DNA of 64,000 nt from Eledone cirrhosa (Eukaryota): assembly GCA_964016885.1 (NCBI GenBank), contig OZ024747.1, forward strand, positions 14,446,001 through 14,510,000, written 5' to 3'. Both the position numbers and the translations under genes were made by a program. The notes below the pieces were generated by a model, which ran no database searches, was not told where the DNA came from, and worked only from the letters and a program-made list of their open reading frames with translations. Positions 11,225-56,749 of the stretch are shown here, in pieces (position 1 is the stretch's first letter; every line of letters starts with the position of its first letter).

Positions 11225-11252
11225 ACACATATATATATATATATATATATAT

Positions 11253-11449
11253 AAGAAAGAAGGTGTGCTAAGATACCAGGTGGACCATAACGCACCAGAG
11301 TACTCGATACTTTGGGTAGTAGAGTGGGTAATAGGAAAAGAGTCAGGACCCCGACGGCTGAGCTCCGGCCGTTTCGACAGCTAGATCCGAACTGCTCGAA
11401 TCTAGTTGTCGAAACGGCCGGAGCTCAGCCGTCGGGGTCCTGACTCTTT
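11253..11449. mobile_element. Family A (subfamily A2) inverted pLTR-like insert in (TA)n
   Basis: Long minus arm plus short plus arm form the palindrome agagtcaggaccccgacggctgagctccggccgtttcgac...gtcgaaacggccggagctcagccgtcggggtcctgactct; carries the 3' half of a hammerhead. Confidence 0.85.
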
Positions 11450-11596
11450 CTCTCTCTCTCTCTCTCTGTATATATTTATATATATATATATATAAATGAA
11501 TTAATTATCTTATATTGTTTATTACATAACTAACAAGTTCTGTAGCCTACATAGAGCACTCTCTTTTCCTTTACCTTTCCTACGGAAATACATCAT

Positions 11597-17703: not shown

Positions 17704-17753
<50 letters not shown>

Positions 17754-17755
<2 letters not shown>

Positions 17756-17964
17756 CGAAGGAATTGTGGTAAGGAACCAGGTGGCCCATAACGCACCAGA
17801 GTACTCGATACTTAGGGTAGTAGTGTGAGTAATAGGGAAATAGTCAGGACCCCGACGGTTGAGCTCCGGCCGTTTCGACAGCTAGATCTGAAGTACTGTG
17901 TTAGTTTAAATCTAGTTGTCGAAACGGTCGGAGGTCAGTCGTCGGGATCCTGACTCTTTTCCTA
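17754..17964. mobile_element. Family A (A2) inverted pLTR-like insert in (TA)n
   Basis: Same arms and end points as 11253-11449. Confidence 0.85.
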
Positions 17965-17991
17965 TATCTAACTATCTCTCTCTCTATATAC

Positions 17992-23182: not shown

Positions 23183-23372
23183 CATAAATAATTACTCAGT
23201 ATAGTTGCTTGCTAGCTAAGAGTTCAAAGCCTACTTTAGCATAGGTCATAGAAACACTACATATGCTAGTAGAGCTTATAATAATATTTCGTTCTGTAAA
23301 TAATATAGAGCATTCATTTTCCTTTGTGTATATTACGGAAACTTGACACTACATATATATATATTTATATAT

Positions 23373-23579
23373 GAACGAGTAGGACCCCGGCGGCTGAGCT
23401 CAAGCCGTTTCGACGGCTAATTCTGGACTAAAATGGTTTTAGTCCAGAATTAGCCGTCAAAACGGCTTGAGCTCAGCCGTCGGGGTCCTACTCGTTCCTA
23501 TTACCCACTCTACTACCCGAAGTATTGAGTACTTTGGTGCGTTATGGTCCACCTGGTTCCTTACCACATTTCCTTCGTT
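23373..23579. mobile_element. Family A (A1) inverted pLTR-like insert in (TA)n
   Basis: Short minus arm, then long plus arm ending ccacatttccttcgtt|(AT)n. Confidence 0.88.
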
Positions 23580-23846
23580 ATATATATATATACATATATA
23601 TATATGTGGGGGGGGGGTATATACATGTATAACATATGTTCCAGTGAGTGCGTTTCTGTATGTATGTGTATAGTAGGATGGAAAATAAATGTTTGTGTAT
23701 ATTGATTTGTTTTATGCGTACCTCTAGATTAAAGCCAATGAAGCGAGAGAGGGGGAGGGAGAACGTGTGTATGTGTCGGGGGAATTGTCTGAGGGTGAAG
23801 AGAATGATGAAGAGGGAAGAGACGGTCATCAAATACATATATTGCA

Positions 23847-26429: not shown

Positions 26430-26477
<48 letters not shown>

Positions 26478-26479
<2 letters not shown>

Positions 26480-26687
26480 CGAAGGAAATGTGGTAAGGAA
26501 CCAGGTGGACCATAACGCACCAAAGTACTCGATACTTAGGGCAGTAGAGTGGGTAATAGGAACGAGTAGGACCCCGACGGCTGAGCTCAAGCCGTTTCGA
26601 CGGGTAATTCTGGAATAAAAAATTTTTAGTCCAGAATTAGCCGTCGAAACGGCTTGAGCTCAGCCGTCGGGGTCCTACTCGTTCCTA
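26478..26687. mobile_element. Family A (A1) inverted pLTR-like insert in (TA)n
   Basis: Long minus arm plus short plus arm ending gttccta|(TA)n. Confidence 0.88.
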
Positions 26688-26747
26688 TATATATATATAA
26701 ATGTGCACATAGAGACAGACGCACACACGTGTATATATATATATATG

Positions 26748-31161: not shown

Positions 31162-31199
<38 letters not shown>

Positions 31200-31432
31200 T
31201 TAGAAACACACAGATACATGCGGACACACACATATATACATGAATGCATCCGCACCCAACTGTGAGTTAAGGGTGCCAACTTCACCGATGTTGCTCAATG
31301 AATAACCGGGACAGACCAATTCAGTAGAACTAGACTGAACCAGTATCAGAGTTAAAAATACATTATGAAGAGAGAAGAAACATTTAGATATAATTAGTAA
31401 TAAAATGTATCATACCTAAACTGCTCCTAAAT

Positions 31433-31522
31433 TCCTCGACTACGTAGTTTCGTGGCATAAACAAAAACAATATATCATAAAGATATAGAGTCCCTGCGAG
31501 GTCTGCCGACTTATCAAGAGGA
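31433..31522 (-). ncRNA. Type I hammerhead with U3-A8 core (family D)
   Basis: Reverse complement of 32561-32650. Confidence 0.85.
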
Positions 31523-32560
31523 TACCTCATTTTACTAGTCTCAAGAACGCGTCTACACGACGTGAGAAAGAATCCCAAAAGGCGGAGGGGGAGATAGTCA
31601 CGCGATATAACGGTAGAGAAACAGAGCTAAGCCTCTTATAACCACGAAGAAAATACCACAGAGGCGGAGGGGGTATTCATATCGAGGCCGCAGAAGAGGT
31701 GGTGAAGAAGGCTAGAAGTATGAGTAATGGAAGCTTTCCAGTTGTCCCCACACCTCAAAGATTACTCGACCAGAGGGAGTTATTAACAATATATTTAGAA
31801 ACACACAGATATATGCGGACACACACATATATACATGAATGCATCCGCACCCAACTGTGAGTTAAGGGTGCCAACTTCACCGATGTTGCTCAATGAATAA
31901 CCGGGACAGACCAATTCAGTTGAACTAGACTGAACCAGTATCAGAGTTAAAAATACATTATGAAGAGAGAAGAAACATTTAGATATAATTAGTAATAAAA
32001 TGTATCATACCTAAACTGCTCCTAAATTCCTCGACTACGTAGTTTCGTGGCATAAACAAAATTTATTGGCATAAATTTCGTGGCATAAACATAATTATAT
32101 CTAAATGTTTCTTCTCTCTTCATAATGTATTTTTAACTCTGATACTGGTTCAGTCTAGTTCAACTGAATTGGTCTGTCCCGGTTATTCATTGAGCAACAT
32201 CGGTGAAGTTGGCACCCTTAACTCACAGTTGGGTGCGGATGCATTCATGTATATATGTGTGTGTCCGCATGTATCTGTGTGTTTCTAAATATATTGTTAA
32301 TAACTCCCTCTGGTCGAGCAATCTTTGAGGTGTGGGGACAACTGGAAAGCTTCCATTACTCATACTTCTAGCCTTCTTCACCACCTCTTCTGCGGCCTCG
32401 ATATGAATACCCCCTCCGCCTCTGTGGTATTTTCTTCGTGGTTATAAGAGGCTTAGCTCTGTTTCTCGACCGTTATATCGCGTGACTATCTCCCCCTCCG
32501 CCTTTTGGGATTCTTTCTCACGTCGTGTAGACGCGTTCTTGAGACTAGTAAAATGAGGTA

Positions 32561-32650
32561 TCCTCTTGATAAGTCGGCAGACCTCGCAGGGACTCTATAT
32601 CTTTATGATATATTGTTTTTGTTTATGCCACGAAACTACGTAGTCGAGGA
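32561..32650 (+). ncRNA. Type I hammerhead with U3-A8 core (family D)
   Basis: TCCTC-TTGATAA-GT-C-GGCA...TGCC-AC-GAAA-CT-ACGT-AG-TC|GAGGA; 5-bp stem I, palindromic stem III ACTACGTAGT, GUC site after 32645. Confidence 0.87.
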
Positions 32651-32927
32651 ATTTAGGAGCAGTTTAGGTATGATACATTGTATTACTAATTATATCTAAA
32701 TGTTTCTTCTCTCTTCATAATGTATATATATATATATATAGATGCATTGCCAAAGATAATTCGCATATCAAGTCAAATACGATATTATGTGGACTCCCTT
32801 CCTCGGGGCAAAGGCGGGTGCTTTTTGTCCCCTTATCGACAAAAATATTAACAAAATAACAATTTAAACAAGTTAATTCCACAAGCCTATTATAGCTCAT
32901 AATCGAACATGTTACACTTAAGTCGCC

Positions 32928-35248: not shown

Positions 35249-35344
35249 AGAGAGAGAGAGAGAAAGAAAGAAAGAGGTGTGTTAAATCATAAGGGCTAGA
35301 GTACCTCCAGAGTGAGAAACATAATTTTATATATATATATATAT

Positions 35345-35537
35345 GGGAAAAAGTATGACCCCGACGCCAGAGCTCAAGCCGTTTCGACGGCTATTTCTGG
35401 AGTCCAGAAATAGCCGTCGAAACGCTTTGAGCTCTGCCGTCGGGGTCATACTTTTTCCTATTTCCCACTCTACTACCCTAAGTATTGAGTACTCTGGTTC
35501 GTTATGGTCCATCTGTTTCCTTACCACATTTCATTCG

Positions 35538-35539
<2 letters not shown>
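35345..35539. mobile_element. Family A inverted insert in (TA)n
   Basis: Palindrome centred on ctgga|gtccag, with long plus arm. Confidence 0.88.
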
Positions 35540-35580
<41 letters not shown>

Positions 35581-36501: not shown

Positions 36502-37819
36502 CATATATATAACATATATAAATGCATATACTGAATCTATATGCCATATAACTTATCCAGGGATTGGGTTTGATCGATGTCATTTTTGTAAGATGGATTT
36601 CAATAGAGAGTATTTAGCTTAAATTGCTAAAATGTACTTAATTTTTCCTATTTCATTATCCTCTATGTCTATGTTTAATAAAAGAAATCACAAATGACTG
36701 ACCAAAAGAATGTGAATTTTTATAAAAATGAACTGAAATGTTTTGGGTGCGATTTTGAGATCACAAAAATAGATGAATTCTGTGATGAATAGATGAATTT
36801 CTTAATATCTTTTTTTGTTGAAAAGAAATCGACCGAACAATACTATTCTTATTTCGTACAGAAGTCAATGGGATGAATGAACCCATTAATGGATATGTCT
36901 CAATTTTAAAAGTTAATCAGATGACTCTATATTTACACATACTAGTGTTTCGAATGAATAATTTAATTATTACATTTAAGGTTGTATGGGATAAAATACC
37001 CAGCGATATTTGGTATGGATTTTATGTCCAGATTTCAATTTCTACTGAGGTTAACTTTACCTTTAATCACTTAACCTCGGTTAGAATAAAGCAACAACCA
37101 AGTACTGCTGCTCCTTGCTAGAATGTTAGAGGGAGCATTAAATCTTCACCGAAAATGTGTTTCCATTCGACATATGAAATGAAGCACACATGGTAGTAAA
37201 AGACTGTGATATCAATATTATCTCTGTAATACCTTTGGTTATTGTCAACGCAACACACACTGATACAAAACCTACTATTCACACATTATATAGTGGTACT
37301 AGTGACGTCATATGTGTTGTCCATGCTCTAACGATTCCCTGCATTTGGGCTGATATTTCCTTTATTGACCCTCAAAAGCTAAGAAGTTAAGTTTCTCTCA
37401 ATAGGGCCGGAACAAACGACGTAGGTCATTCTACCCGACACTCTTACAACATTGCAAATTCGCCACCTTTAAATGATATATTGTAGATTTTAAGGATTGA
37501 CAAGCTCATTACTATGTAAACGATTCGACCTTTATAAGTACTAAAAATATATGGTTATAGTTGAAGTAGTGCATGAATAGTAAGCATCGTTTTCTGATGT
37601 TAGTTCCAGATGGAAAGAGTCCATTATCTTGTTATATTTAATTTTATGTCATATAAGCAAGAAATTCTTTGTTTAAGATCATGATTGTTCTATGTTGTTT
37701 TCACACCCCCTTAAAATATATCTCTTGATATGCTAACATAGGTGTTTCTATGCCCTGCAACTAATAGAACCAATTAATAGAACTAAATTGACAACTACAA
37801 TCTTCCCATATAAGAAAGT

Positions 37820-37916
37820 ACCCCCTTGACAAGTTCGGCTATTTATTCACCAGGCTAAAAATTCTAATTTAGTCCAGAAATAGCCGTCGAAACGGCTTGA
37901 GCTCTGCCGTCGGGGT
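37820..37916 (+). ncRNA. Complete type I hammerhead with U3-A8 core (family A)
   Basis: CCCC-TTGACAA-G-TT-CGGCTATTT...AAATAGCCG-T-C-GAAA-CGGC-TTGAGCTCT-GCCG-TC|GGGG; GUC site after 37911. Confidence 0.87.
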
Positions 37917-37928
37917 CATACTTTTTCC

Positions 37929-38023
<95 letters not shown>

Positions 38024-38224: not shown

Positions 38225-38267
<43 letters not shown>

Positions 38268-38271
<4 letters not shown>

Positions 38272-38772
38272 AAAATGTATGACCTCGACGGCAGAGCTCA
38301 AGCCGTGTCGACGGCTATTTCTGGACTAAATTAGAATTTTTAGCGTGGTAAATAAATAGCCGAACTTTTCAAGGGGTACTTACTTATATGGGAAGATTGT
38401 AGTTGTCAAGAGGAATGGTCACAATTTCTTGTAAACACAATTAAGTCTATCATGGCAGTGGGTGGGAGGTGAGGCTGGCTGAACTTGCCTGTAGGAATGG
38501 GTGGAGCCGGTCAAGCGTTGAAAGTGAAATCTATACAGCAAATTCTAAAAATGACAACTAGAATCTTCCCATATATGGAATTACCCCTTGAAAAGTTCGG
38601 CTATTTATTTACCACGCTAAAAATTCTAATTTAGTCCAGAAATAGCTGTCGACACGGCTTGAGCTCTACCGTCGGTGCCATACATTTTCCTATTACCCAC
38701 TCTACTACCCTAGGGTATTGAGTACTCTGGTGCGTTATGGTCCATCTGGTTCCTTACCACAACTCCTTCGTT
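38268..38772. mobile_element. Longest family A inverted insert; both arms contain the whole hammerhead (TTGAAAA core, GAAA changed to GACA)
   Basis: 38268-38409 is the reverse complement of ~38552-38692; plus arm ends ctccttcgtt|(AT)n. Confidence 0.88.
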
Positions 38773-39221
38773 ATATATATATATATATATATATTATATA
38801 CAATAAAATTATATATATATATATATAATTTGATTGTCATGGCTTAAATGGTATTTTTGTAAATTGAGACAGATTTTAAACGACAACCCCCTCCTCGCAA
38901 AAAGCAACAAGTTCAACAAAAGCAACAAGTTCTTTGAGAATCAAAATTATTCATTAAGTATATGGTTGTTCTATGATAAATGAGATAAGTTATTGTCTGT
39001 AGGTGAAACAAAGCAATTAATCTATTAGCACAAACAAATAAACACTACTAAATAGAATTTAAGTTTATATGAAAGATATAATTAACCGAGTAATCAATCA
39101 TTATATTACACTAATTGAAATGTGGATTTCCAGGAGGTTTTTTCTGGTGTATAAAACGTGTGAATGTCAAGCCTGTATGTGTGTGTATTTCATTAAGGAT
39201 ATTAGCATTTACGTATCTAAT

Positions 39222-53504: not shown

Positions 53505-53603
53505 TGAGAGAGAGAGAAGCTGACAAAAAACTTACACACAACCCCGACAAATGAAAGTAAGGTATATATATATACTTACACACATATATATATATATATA
53601 TAT

Positions 53604-53793
53604 AACAAAGCAAATGTGGAAAGCAAACAGATGGACCATAACGCACCAGAGTACTCAATACTTGGGGTAGTAGAGTGGGAAATAGGAAAATGTATGACCC
53701 CCGACGACAGAGCTCAAGCCGTTTCGACGGCTATTTCTGGACTCCAGAAATAGCCGTCGAAATGGCTTGAGCTCTGTCGTCGGGGTCATACTT

Positions 53794-53797
<4 letters not shown>
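53604..53797. mobile_element. Family A inverted insert in (TA)n
   Basis: Long minus arm plus short plus arm, centre ctggactccag. Confidence 0.88.
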
Positions 53798-53831
<34 letters not shown>

Positions 53832-53937: not shown

Positions 53938-54002
<65 letters not shown>

Positions 54003-54280
54003 CTGAAAACATAGAAAGGAGAAGGCTAAAGGAAAGGACAACTCGGGGAGGAGAAAATAAACTTATAAAATCAAAAGAGGCTGGCAATTTTCTAGAGAAC
54101 AAACAATGAAGGTGAGGGAGGTCTAGAAAACAATAATAATAATAACATTAATGATAACAATGTTAATAACAACAACAACAACAACTACAACAACAATAAT
54201 AATAATAATAATAATAATAACAACAACAATAATAATAACATTAATGATAAAACAATGGTAATAATAATAACAACAACAAC

Positions 54281-54321
<41 letters not shown>

Positions 54322-54606
54322 TAACAATAACAATGATAAAATAATGATGATGATGATGATGACGATGGTGATGATGATGATGATAATAATGATGATAATG
54401 ATGAGGATGATGATGATGATGATGATGATAATAATGATGATAATTATGAGGATGATGATGATGATGATGATGATGATAACTAGTAACAGTAGTAGAACGG
54501 AAGGAATATATAATTTTAAAAAAGTAACAAAGAAAAAAGGGACAAAAAATAAAACAGACAAACAAAAAAAAAGACACAGGAAAAAAAAATGGATGAAAAA
54601 ATTAAT

Positions 54607-54835
54607 AAATAAAGGAATAAAAGAAGGAAGGAATAAAGGAATAAAAGAAGGAAGGAATAAAGGAATAAAAGAAGGAAGGAATAAAGGAATAAAAGAACGA
54701 CGGAATAAAGGAATAAAAGAACGACGAAATAAAGGAATAAAAGAAGGAAGGAATAAAGGAATAAAAGAAGGAAGGAATAAAGGAATAAAAGAAGGAAGGA
54801 ATAAAGGAATAAAGGAAGGAGGAATAAAGGAATAA
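54607..54835. repeat. 24-bp minisatellite AATAAAGGAATAAAAGAAGGAAGG, ~9 copies
   Basis: Direct reading; gives the NKGIKEGR repeat in the ORF track. Confidence 0.93.
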
Positions 54836-54967
54836 GAGAAGGAGGAATAAAGGAATAAGAGAAGGAAGGAATAAAGGAATAAGAGAGAGAGAATGAAATA
54901 GAATAATTTAAAAAGAATTGATACGTTGCGAAGAAAGAACGAGATGGACGAAGAAAAAAAAAGGGAA

Positions 54968-55535
54968 TGATGATGGTGGTGATGGTGATGATGGTGGTGG
55001 TGGTGATGATGGTGGTGGTGGTGATGATGGTGGTGATGGTGGTGATGGTGATGGTGGTGGTGGTGATGATGGTGGTGGTGATGATGGTGGTGGTGGTGAT
55101 GATGGTGATGATGCTGGTGATGGTGGTGATGGTGATGATGGTGGTTGTGATGATGGTGATGATGATGATGATGGCGGTGGTGGTGGTGATGGTGATGATG
55201 GTGGTTGTGATGATGGTGATGATGATGGTGGTGGTGATGATGGTGGTGATGGTGGTGATGGTGTTGGTGGTGGTGATGGTCGTGGTGGTGATGATGGTGG
55301 TGGTGATGATGGTGGTGATGATGATAATGGTGCTGATAATGATGATGATGATAATAATGGTGGTGATGATGGTGCTGATGATGATGGTGCTGATGATGAT
55401 GGGTTGATGATGATGGTGGTGGTGGTGATGATGATGGTGATGATAATGGCGGTGGTGGTGGTGATGATGATGGTGGTGATGATGATGGTGGTGGTGGTGA
55501 TGATGTTGACGATGAGGATGATGACAACGACAATA

Positions 55536-55578
<43 letters not shown>

Positions 55579-55603
55579 CGATGATGACGATGATGATGAT
55601 AAT
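54968..55603. repeat. (GAT)n/(GGT)n compound microsatellite
   Basis: Source of the poly-H, poly-DG and poly-MV ORFs. Confidence 0.95.
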
Positions 55604-55893
55604 GAAGTGTAGTACAAAATCAACCAGAAATGTAATGACAAAGAAAAGGAAAAGATGAAACTTATAATGACTCTCGGGACAAAATATACGACGGCTGCAG
55701 CCTGATGATGTAGGCTCTGGTGACATTTGAACGGAGAACGCACATACACACACTCACACATGTATATGACATCATTTACTATGTTATTAGACTTCGAATT
55801 GAAGTCAATATTTTGGTAACACCCTGTATGGTCTCTTTTACTCTTTTGCCTGTTCCTGCCAGTCGGATTAGGCCATGCTGGGGCACCGTCCTT

Positions 55894-55979
<86 letters not shown>

Positions 55980-56749
55980 AACTTAAGAAAATTAACAAAG
56001 AGAGGACAAGACAATGAAAGTAAACAAAACAAAACGAAAAAAAGGGAGACCCTAAACTACATATATATACATACATTTACACACAGACACACACACACAC
56101 GCATATACATGTGTATATATATATATGTATATATATATATATGCATGCATTCATACAGATGTATATGTGTGCGCGCATGTTATGGTTTAAAATGTATATA
56201 AGGGTAGTTGATTGTAAAAAAAAAAGTGACAGATGTGAAGGAGAGGAATCAATCTCCTATATTGACACATGTTCTGAGCTTCGATTATTGCAATTTCAGT
56301 CAAGCTTTTCCTTGGCCTTAAATGCAATGAAATAAATAATGTCTAATGGTTGGAGGGTCGTTGATCCATGTAAATATTCAAGAAGGCCACTAAAACTCAG
56401 CTGGTTGTGACTTCCTCTATGAAATTGATTCTCCACGCCTTCTCCAATTCACAATACATGATTGCTAATAAATCATTAATTTATTAATTTTACAAAGATA
56501 AAAAAAAACAAAAAAAAACGTAATATCGAATATAATGTCCTTGATTACATTTCTTCGGAAAATGTATTATACATATAAATACATTACACACACATACATG
56601 CATACACACACACATATATATATATAAATGTTTATATACATATATATCCGAAGCCCGACGGCTGAGCTCTTGTCGTTTCGACAGCAAATCCCATGTATCG
56701 AGTACTCAGCCGAATAATGGTCTTCCTAGTTTAAAATTGGTATACTCGT

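Follow-up and report, generated by a model that had tools for sequence, protein, structure and literature searches.

A U3-A8 hammerhead in the terminal repeats of a Hydra-clade Penelope-like element of Eledone cirrhosa, with a probable transcript start inside the ribozyme

RESULTS

A type I hammerhead fold with a U3-A8 core

The stretch of Eledone cirrhosa DNA that was analyzed (the window) is 64,000 nt long, and all of the parts of a type I hammerhead ribozyme, with U3-A8 in place of C3-G8, are found at 37822-37915 within a copy of repeat family A. The parts are as follows.

37822-37825, + strand: stem I 5′ strand CCCC, which pairs with 37912-37915, with a predicted extension past a 1x3 internal loop
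37826-37832, + strand: 5′ box of the catalytic core, TTGACAA (U3 U4 G5 A6 C7 A8 A9)
37833-37888, + strand: long stem II region (G10.1-C11.1, a small internal loop, a 9-bp helix and an inner hairpin)
37869-37874, + strand: initiator-like YYAGTY motif, in which A37871 is position −40 from C17
37889-37891, + strand: GAA (G12 A13 A14)
37892-37910, + strand: stem III, near-palindromic, 5 bp
37911, + strand: C17, the predicted cut site
37912-37915, + strand: stem I 3′ strand GGGG, which pairs with 37822-37825

Three helices surround the core and stem I is the open one, as in type I hammerheads, and 37826-37911 contains a Watson-Crick 3-8 pair (U3-A8), A15.1-U16.1 and a permitted base at H17 (C17). 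Stem II begins with the G10.1-C11.1 pair (37833/37888) and continues with a 9-bp helix, 37836-37844 with 37878-37886, enclosing a 33-nt insert that itself contains a 7-bp hairpin. An earlier note on this DNA had described a CCCC/GGGG stem I, a 9-bp stem II with a loop of about 33 nt and a stem III, as well as the cores TTGACAA here and TTGAAAA at 38588, and each of these is present. The hammerhead-constrained fold sits 1.1 kcal/mol above the minimum free energy, and the region is more stable than shuffled versions (z = −2.7; 4/200 shuffles). Moreover, a hammerhead descriptor gave four relaxed matches and one strict match in the 64-kb window, whereas all 30 shuffles were free of matches. The Rfam hammerhead models gave no match at the gathering score and none at an E value of ≤10, for which the length of stem II and the variant core are the likely reasons. 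We conclude from the folding models that the locus is a real type I hammerhead fold with a U3-A8 core and a predicted cut after C37911.

Pairing was compared across 34 aligned copies, which had been selected with patterns in which part of stem II is fixed, and 96.1% of 646 cells were paired. Between subfamilies A1 and A2, both members of three stem II pairs differ. Stem I was paired in 97.8% of cells with zero compensatory change, and neither stem I nor stem III had a double-sided change in the 34 copies. Three double-sided pairs were also reached in 496 of 500 control shuffles. Since the covariation traces to a single A1/A2 split in pattern-chosen copies, it gives the stem II helix modest support.

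Family A arms in the window

The intact hammerhead belongs to a solo fragment of a terminal repeat (pLTR), and further arms of the family, including head-to-head pairs, lie around it.

11248-11465, unstranded: head-to-head stub pair of the older subfamily A2
17749-17970, unstranded: head-to-head stub pair, A2
23367-23584, unstranded: head-to-head stub pair, A1b
26473-26690, unstranded: head-to-head stub pair, A1b
35341-35544, unstranded: head-to-head stub pair, A1, in which both arms start near −40 and there is one short end and one tailed end
37788-37931, + strand: solo pLTR fragment, A1, that runs out in a (TA)n tract about 20 nt past the cut site
38265-38548, − strand: long inverted pLTR arm of the neighboring insertion, with its core broken by A14C
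38552-38777, + strand: partner arm with an 83-nt tail and the same A14C
53599-53803, unstranded: head-to-head stub pair, A1

Arms spanning the cut site numbered 22 in the 64-kb window, compared with 16 in 200 kb of flanking sequence and 13 in dispersed stretches totaling 200 kb, indicating that the window is unusually dense. The count is slightly higher than the roughly 16 fragments reported in the earlier note; its statement that most of them lack the 5′ half held. Its claim that three long copies give the full fold did not, as only one of the three is intact. The other two, 38265-38548 and 38552-38777, are the two arms of one inverted insertion, and both carry GACA for GAAA (A14C) and mismatched stem I 3′ strands. 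As A14C is common to both arms, a core-dead template was probably copied.

The host is a Hydra-clade Penelope-like element

A genome search recovered near-identical copies of the repeat, some of them paired about 3.1 kb apart, and the solo fragment at 37788-37931 is 99% identical to both pLTRs of one such copy, L031. Direct pLTRs 3,096 to 3,118 bp apart flank a frame with a reverse transcriptase (RT) and, at the C terminus, a GIY-YIG domain. The frame is broken in L031 and intact in a second copy, L225, where hammerheads 3,118 bp apart flank a 718-amino-acid frame with YRDDG and YIG. A single RT plus GIY-YIG frame between hammerhead-bearing pLTRs is the organization of an EN+ Penelope-like element (PLE), as are the 5′ truncation, the inverted pLTR and the tail on one arm, and insertion into (TA)n is as in the Hydra clade. 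The L225-type protein contains RWR at residue 36, DKT at 116, CxCX5C at 571, CxxC at 669 and CxH at 697, and a simple string search of it found neither GxKF nor a contiguous CCHH. Its N terminus resembles that of Hydra-1_Obim when compared by eye. Pfam returned no family for the 718-amino-acid frame, and a related fragment matched GIY-YIG at an E value of 0.029, below the cut-off. A protein search scored 8,000 candidates and found 2,217 relatives, at about 40% identity among the matches listed, and none of the 120 relatives listed had an informative name. The 769-nt 3′ untranslated region (UTR) contains no AATAAA or ATTAAA. We conclude that family A is the pLTR of a Hydra-clade PLE, a placement made on published motifs and by-eye comparison with reference proteins. 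The U3-A8 type I hammerhead of the earlier note is supported by these results, and its membership in a PLE had been overlooked. Frames of further, divergent Hydra-like Penelope families were seen at L116:7318-9492, L122:6483-8060 and L034:6957-7271.

In passages of the study that describes the Hydra clade (Craig et al. 2021, PMC8557442), the elements share with family A the single RT plus GIY-YIG frame, DKT, the CxCX5C linker, CxxC and CxH, the lack of a CCHH string, (TA)n targets, pLTRs, and inverted arms with a tail. Family A differs from those descriptions in its U3-A8 or C3.A8 core, a stem II region spanning 56 nt, a stem III that is a 19-nt near-palindrome, a unit of about 3.1 kb, a tail of 83 nt, and RWR in place of RWK. 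In File S2 of that paper, every Hydra-clade hammerhead has C3 at its start (CTGA), and stems II and III are short. A small C3-G8 hammerhead is present in three metagenome contigs of one related element. As C3 is found both in the published hammerheads and in the related element, family A has a variant ribozyme within a known clade.

Copy number and core variants

Copies were counted in the genome as exact pattern matches, so that all counts are lower bounds. The intact U3-A8 box with stem II and GAAAC had 4,200 matches, and 3′ halves had 17,986 (A1b), 8,063 (A1) and 55 (one A2 variant), more than 26,000 in total. The A2 5′ half had 327 matches, and the region just inside the 5′ UTR had 184. 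Because the 3′-half counts are far above the intact counts, we conclude that half-ribozymes, incapable of cis cleavage, make up by far the larger part of the family A copies. The expectation in the earlier note that U3-A8 ribozymes are very high in copy number was borne out to the extent of thousands of matches, and has to be qualified in that most copies are half-ribozymes and that about a quarter of the 5′ halves have a C3.A8 core. U3-A8 hammerheads in PLEs are already published, so their abundance is known in kind; in the relevant part of the 2014 report, U3-A8 PLE cores in Schistosoma mansoni number about 1,300 (PMC4209133), and a high copy number was therefore to be expected.

The earlier note also held that only position 7 of the core varies, and this fails at the level of the family. 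All four bases occur at position 7 across copies, and position 8 is other than A in only 113 matches. Position 3, however, is C in 1,530 matches genome-wide, nearly all of them opposite A8. When position 3 was left free, with a pattern slightly different from that behind the 1,530 C3 matches, 5,612 matches were found. C3 was read in 24 of the first 100 5′ halves listed, so that the mismatched C3.A8 core makes up about a quarter of 5′-half copies, and CTGAGAA was read in 94 of the first 100 C3 matches listed. C3 is common to both arms of single insertions, indicating that C3.A8 templates were transposed. A8, the UGA-AA box and GAAAC are kept across subfamilies.

In a tree of copies (45 of 74 rows), the C3 copies form a grade from which young A1 and young A1b, both U3, emerge separately. 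Forcing 16 C3-G7 rows together was rejected (p-AU = 3e-43); the forced group was picked by the trait, the trait column was kept, the placement of the root is not certain, and a similar pattern could arise from recombination. From these sequences, U3 seems to have arisen independently in the two youngest lineages, whose nesting among C3.A8 copies is what selection for the 3-8 pair would produce. We conclude that the history of the core suggests that a mismatched C3.A8 core is tolerated and was repeatedly repaired.

A probable transcript start inside the ribozyme

Most arms end at recurrent positions. The 3′ ends fall at two sites, about +20 and about +103 from C17, and among 193 arms, 91 were short-ended, 79 were tailed and 23 were other. 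An apparent arm end at +131 is due to the alignment running on into (TA)n, and the real tail end is at about +103. The 5′ ends were at −34 to −44 from C17 in 144 of the 193 arms (56 at −39/−40), with a mode of −40, and the peak lay at −40 or at most 4 nt away in all three subfamily sets; a shoulder at −43/−44 is partly an artifact of local self-complementarity in A1b. These sets were anchored by patterns and leave out very short arms, and the same cluster of 5′ ends was found in a set that was not chosen by pattern (28 of 46). The YYAGTY motif has its A at position −40; it is kept in A1, A1b and A2, and at 37869-37874 it resembles the invertebrate initiator consensus.

Junctions in which both arms reach −40 were found at 1,350 sites for A1 and 134 sites for A2, and the first 50 of each were read by hand. 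One-base spacers were G:C in 13/14 and 17/20 cases, where the template base is T, an excess of G with a p value of 4e-11 against genome composition. Three-base spacers read C-N-G in 9 of 14 cases and never G-N-C, which places the junction G 5′ of the sense-strand A. Among 20 junction sites that were fetched (13 with a single G), substitutions differed and the G was found on either arm. A MITE-like spread of one palindrome was ruled out by the varying junctions and the different substitutions of the arms. Because untemplated bases are added by many reverse transcriptases wherever a template ends, the junction G is firmer evidence for run-off than for a cap. Summed contig depth from two runs of one study rose about 10-fold at −40 and dropped after the tail, which is DNA-like evidence for the stubs and not for expression, as contigs do not reveal where molecules start or end. 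An untemplated G is, in the section on L1 and SVA of PMC4859970, the accepted sign of a copied cap. We conclude from the arm ends and junctions that a capped sense transcript likely starts at A37871, inside the ribozyme and 40 nt before the cut. Several junctions with an untemplated G before a templated stretch from A-45 hint at a minor second start at −45. In the open-licence literature, searches turned up no account of transcripts starting within a PLE hammerhead, of a cap-like G at PLE junctions or of spreading C3.A8 cores.

Near-full-length copies do not end at −40

Thirty loci were anchored in the 5′ UTR, and 18 of them run at least 1.6 kb into the frame. None of the 18 begins at −34 to −44, and 16 reach at least 136 nt upstream, indicating that their template had no end at −40. 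In 4 of 4 copies tested, the two RNA ends were predicted to cofold into a form competent as a hammerhead, with an energy equal to the cofold minimum or no more than 1.1 kcal/mol above it. The missing poly(A) signal, together with the predicted pairing of the cleaved 3′ end with the 5′ half-site, makes a doubly cut circular RNA plausible. We conclude that a doubly cut, circularized RNA is a plausible full-length template, a modeled step for which the evidence is the absent second stop and the folding calculation. One near-full-length copy, L322, begins exactly at the predicted cut site, as a single case. Another locus, L337 (G000:C3:214145900-214148700), consists of about 5.5 family A-derived units, each 273/274 bp long and reaching from −62 as far as the first codons of the frame; the array is without the 5′ core, alternates between two variants and has an inverted tailed arm, which suggests that a 547-nt template without an intact hammerhead was copied repeatedly.

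DISCUSSION

We think it probable that the repeat is the pLTR of a Hydra-clade PLE with a U3-A8 hammerhead and that a capped transcript has its start within the ribozyme, 40 nt ahead of the predicted cut. RNA polymerase II would start at A37871 and produce an mRNA with the 3′ half of a hammerhead at its 5′ end and a whole hammerhead at its 3′ end, the latter setting the 3′ end of the mRNA. The element protein would nick (TA)n and prime internally at two sites, as has been seen in vitro with another PLE. The two cDNAs made on capped RNA would each run off its end, at −40, and copy the cap as G, and their head-to-head joining would yield the abundant stubs of about 200 bp. Full-length copies would need a template without an end at −40, most likely RNA that is cut at both hammerhead sites and then circularized, with stem III, being palindromic, mediating the cut at the 5′ half-site. 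Alternatively, the full-length template could be a read-through transcript, which would account for these data with no cleavage at all. Against this explanation, C3.A8 lineages left about 1,500 copies, A14C is found in both arms of one insertion and L337 is without a 5′ core, and these three observations favor read-through, with no cleavage, for at least some copies. A stronger version of the proposal is possible but doubtful: that the promoter lies inside the ribozyme purposely as part of a switch, in which the whole 3′ hammerhead would cut itself and would then remove the cap by way of its palindromic stem III, so that the circular unit would be the full-length template and the capped RNA would give only stubs, with C3.A8 repaired to U3-A8 more than once.

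The same three observations would be accounted for if the hammerhead were a largely dispensable passenger of the pLTR, with stubs made by run-off, long copies made from read-through host or tandem transcripts and no role for cleavage. In the portion of the Anolis study concerned with insertion in vitro, hammerhead mutants left insertion unaffected and no reads ended at the cut site (PMC11167929), and Craig et al. raise, in one passage, the possibility that hammerheads parasitize PLEs (PMC8557442). We nonetheless consider a passenger unlikely, as it would not predict compensatory changes in stem II, the conservation of A8, the UGA-AA box and GAAAC across subfamilies, the rejection of a single C3 clade with U3 on two separate young lineages, or a 3′ UTR lacking a poly(A) signal.

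The boundary at −40 could instead reflect RT stalling at stem II or a self-priming fold-back rather than a transcript start. The boundary does lie within the strongest helix of the RNA, and head-to-head palindromes are explained by self-priming on an antisense template in the relevant passage of Arkhipova et al. (PMC3846280), an explanation of head-to-head ends that differs from the capped sense start proposed here. Fold-back through stem II, however, should leave the 33-nt loop in the junction, and it was rejected because spacers of 0 to 12 nt are common. The same boundary is found in A2, where, by inspection, the stretch lies outside the inner hairpin; moreover, the junction G has sense polarity and near-full-length copies pass the site unstopped, with none of the 18 stopping there. 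Stalling or fold-back is improbable in our judgment. More improbable still is that the 40 nt from start to cut act as a retrovirus-like R repeat and that full-length copies arise by one 5′-to-3′ jump on linear capped RNA. That stretch would indeed be terminally redundant and the stubs resemble strong-stop DNA, but full-length copies should then begin at −40, and instead none of the 18 begins at −34 to −44 and 16 extend at least 136 nt upstream. A capped start inside the ribozyme is the reading that we retain.

Known systems match family A in part. The motifs of Cercyon PLEs of S. mansoni, in the sections of Cervera and de la Pena (2014, PMC4209133) that describe them, are likewise U3-A8 cores in pLTRs with more than 1,000 copies, G10.1-C11.1, a palindromic stem III, copies that are mostly truncated, and inverted pairs lying close together. 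Helix III is practically absent from those motifs, which require dimers, whereas family A has a stem III of 5 to 6 bp, a predicted monomer fold and a far longer stem II. The same sections propose a circle model for PLE RNA, with which a doubly cut circular template would be consistent. The core covariation of family A is also that of natural U3-A8 hammerheads, stated to be active in vitro in passages of Perreault et al. (2011, PMC3088659) that describe no C3.A8 mismatch spreading in a family. For the Anolis Poseidon PLE (PAc), parts of Frangieh et al. (2024, PMC11167929) show a tail that is delimited by two sites of internal priming, both downstream of the hammerhead; the two 3′ ends of family A arms match these sites, and targets are AT rich in both elements. 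The Anolis core is C3-G8 and overlaps the frame start, and those parts describe neither a start inside the ribozyme nor a cap-derived G. Penelope of Drosophila virilis resembles family A in having an internal promoter with an initiator in the pLTR, but its start, according to excerpts of Schostak et al. (2008, PMC2377424), lies upstream of the ribozyme, 46 nt before an intron whose 3′ end meets stem I.

Family A bears on the role of hammerheads in PLEs and on the origin of head-to-head inverted ends. It offers a precise geometry that can be tested (a transcript start 40 nt ahead of the cut, a pair of priming sites and a cap-like junction G), an intact coding copy usable for assays, and natural core variants (U3-A8, C3.A8 and A14C) whose copy numbers can be compared with measured cleavage rates. 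What these results contribute is the inferred start inside the ribozyme and the history of the core variants; if the start is where we place it, the role of the PLE hammerhead becomes testable.

A second hammerhead family and other observations

Family D is represented at 31192-32725 of the window by an inverted, partly tandem insertion of a 591-bp noncoding unit that carries a U3-A8 hammerhead with a fully palindromic stem III. As the earlier note had stated, family A is unrelated to it, the best matches being 13 nt (E = 0.26) and 16 nt (E = 0.84). A 23-mer of family D had 7,167 exact matches genome-wide, often in arrays of 2 to 5 units. No mobilizing element for family D was found, and an internal boundary is absent, as apparent ends at −39 were an artifact of an indel in the reference sequence. 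Its 591-bp tandem units fit a non-LTR retrozyme, in line with the part of a preprint that describes retrozyme-like units (bioRxiv 10.64898/2026.07.22.740005). The same identity was rejected for family A, which forms the pLTR of an element with a coding frame. Subfamily A1 has another TTGACAA box at L031:2384-2396, about 37 nt upstream of its core, that matches the context of the family D core at 12 of 13 bases, without significance (E = 0.26).

C3-G8 hammerheads with stem II regions of about 80 to 100 nt were seen at L108 (− strand), L112 (+ strand) and L182 (− strand), indicating that a long stem II recurs in this genome. At L132:8250-9998, a long open frame with C2H2 zinc finger-like motifs is probably an exon of a host gene. 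Within the window, 54001-56000 has a GC skew of 0.62 and an AT skew of 0.24 and is probably a simple-repeat tract.
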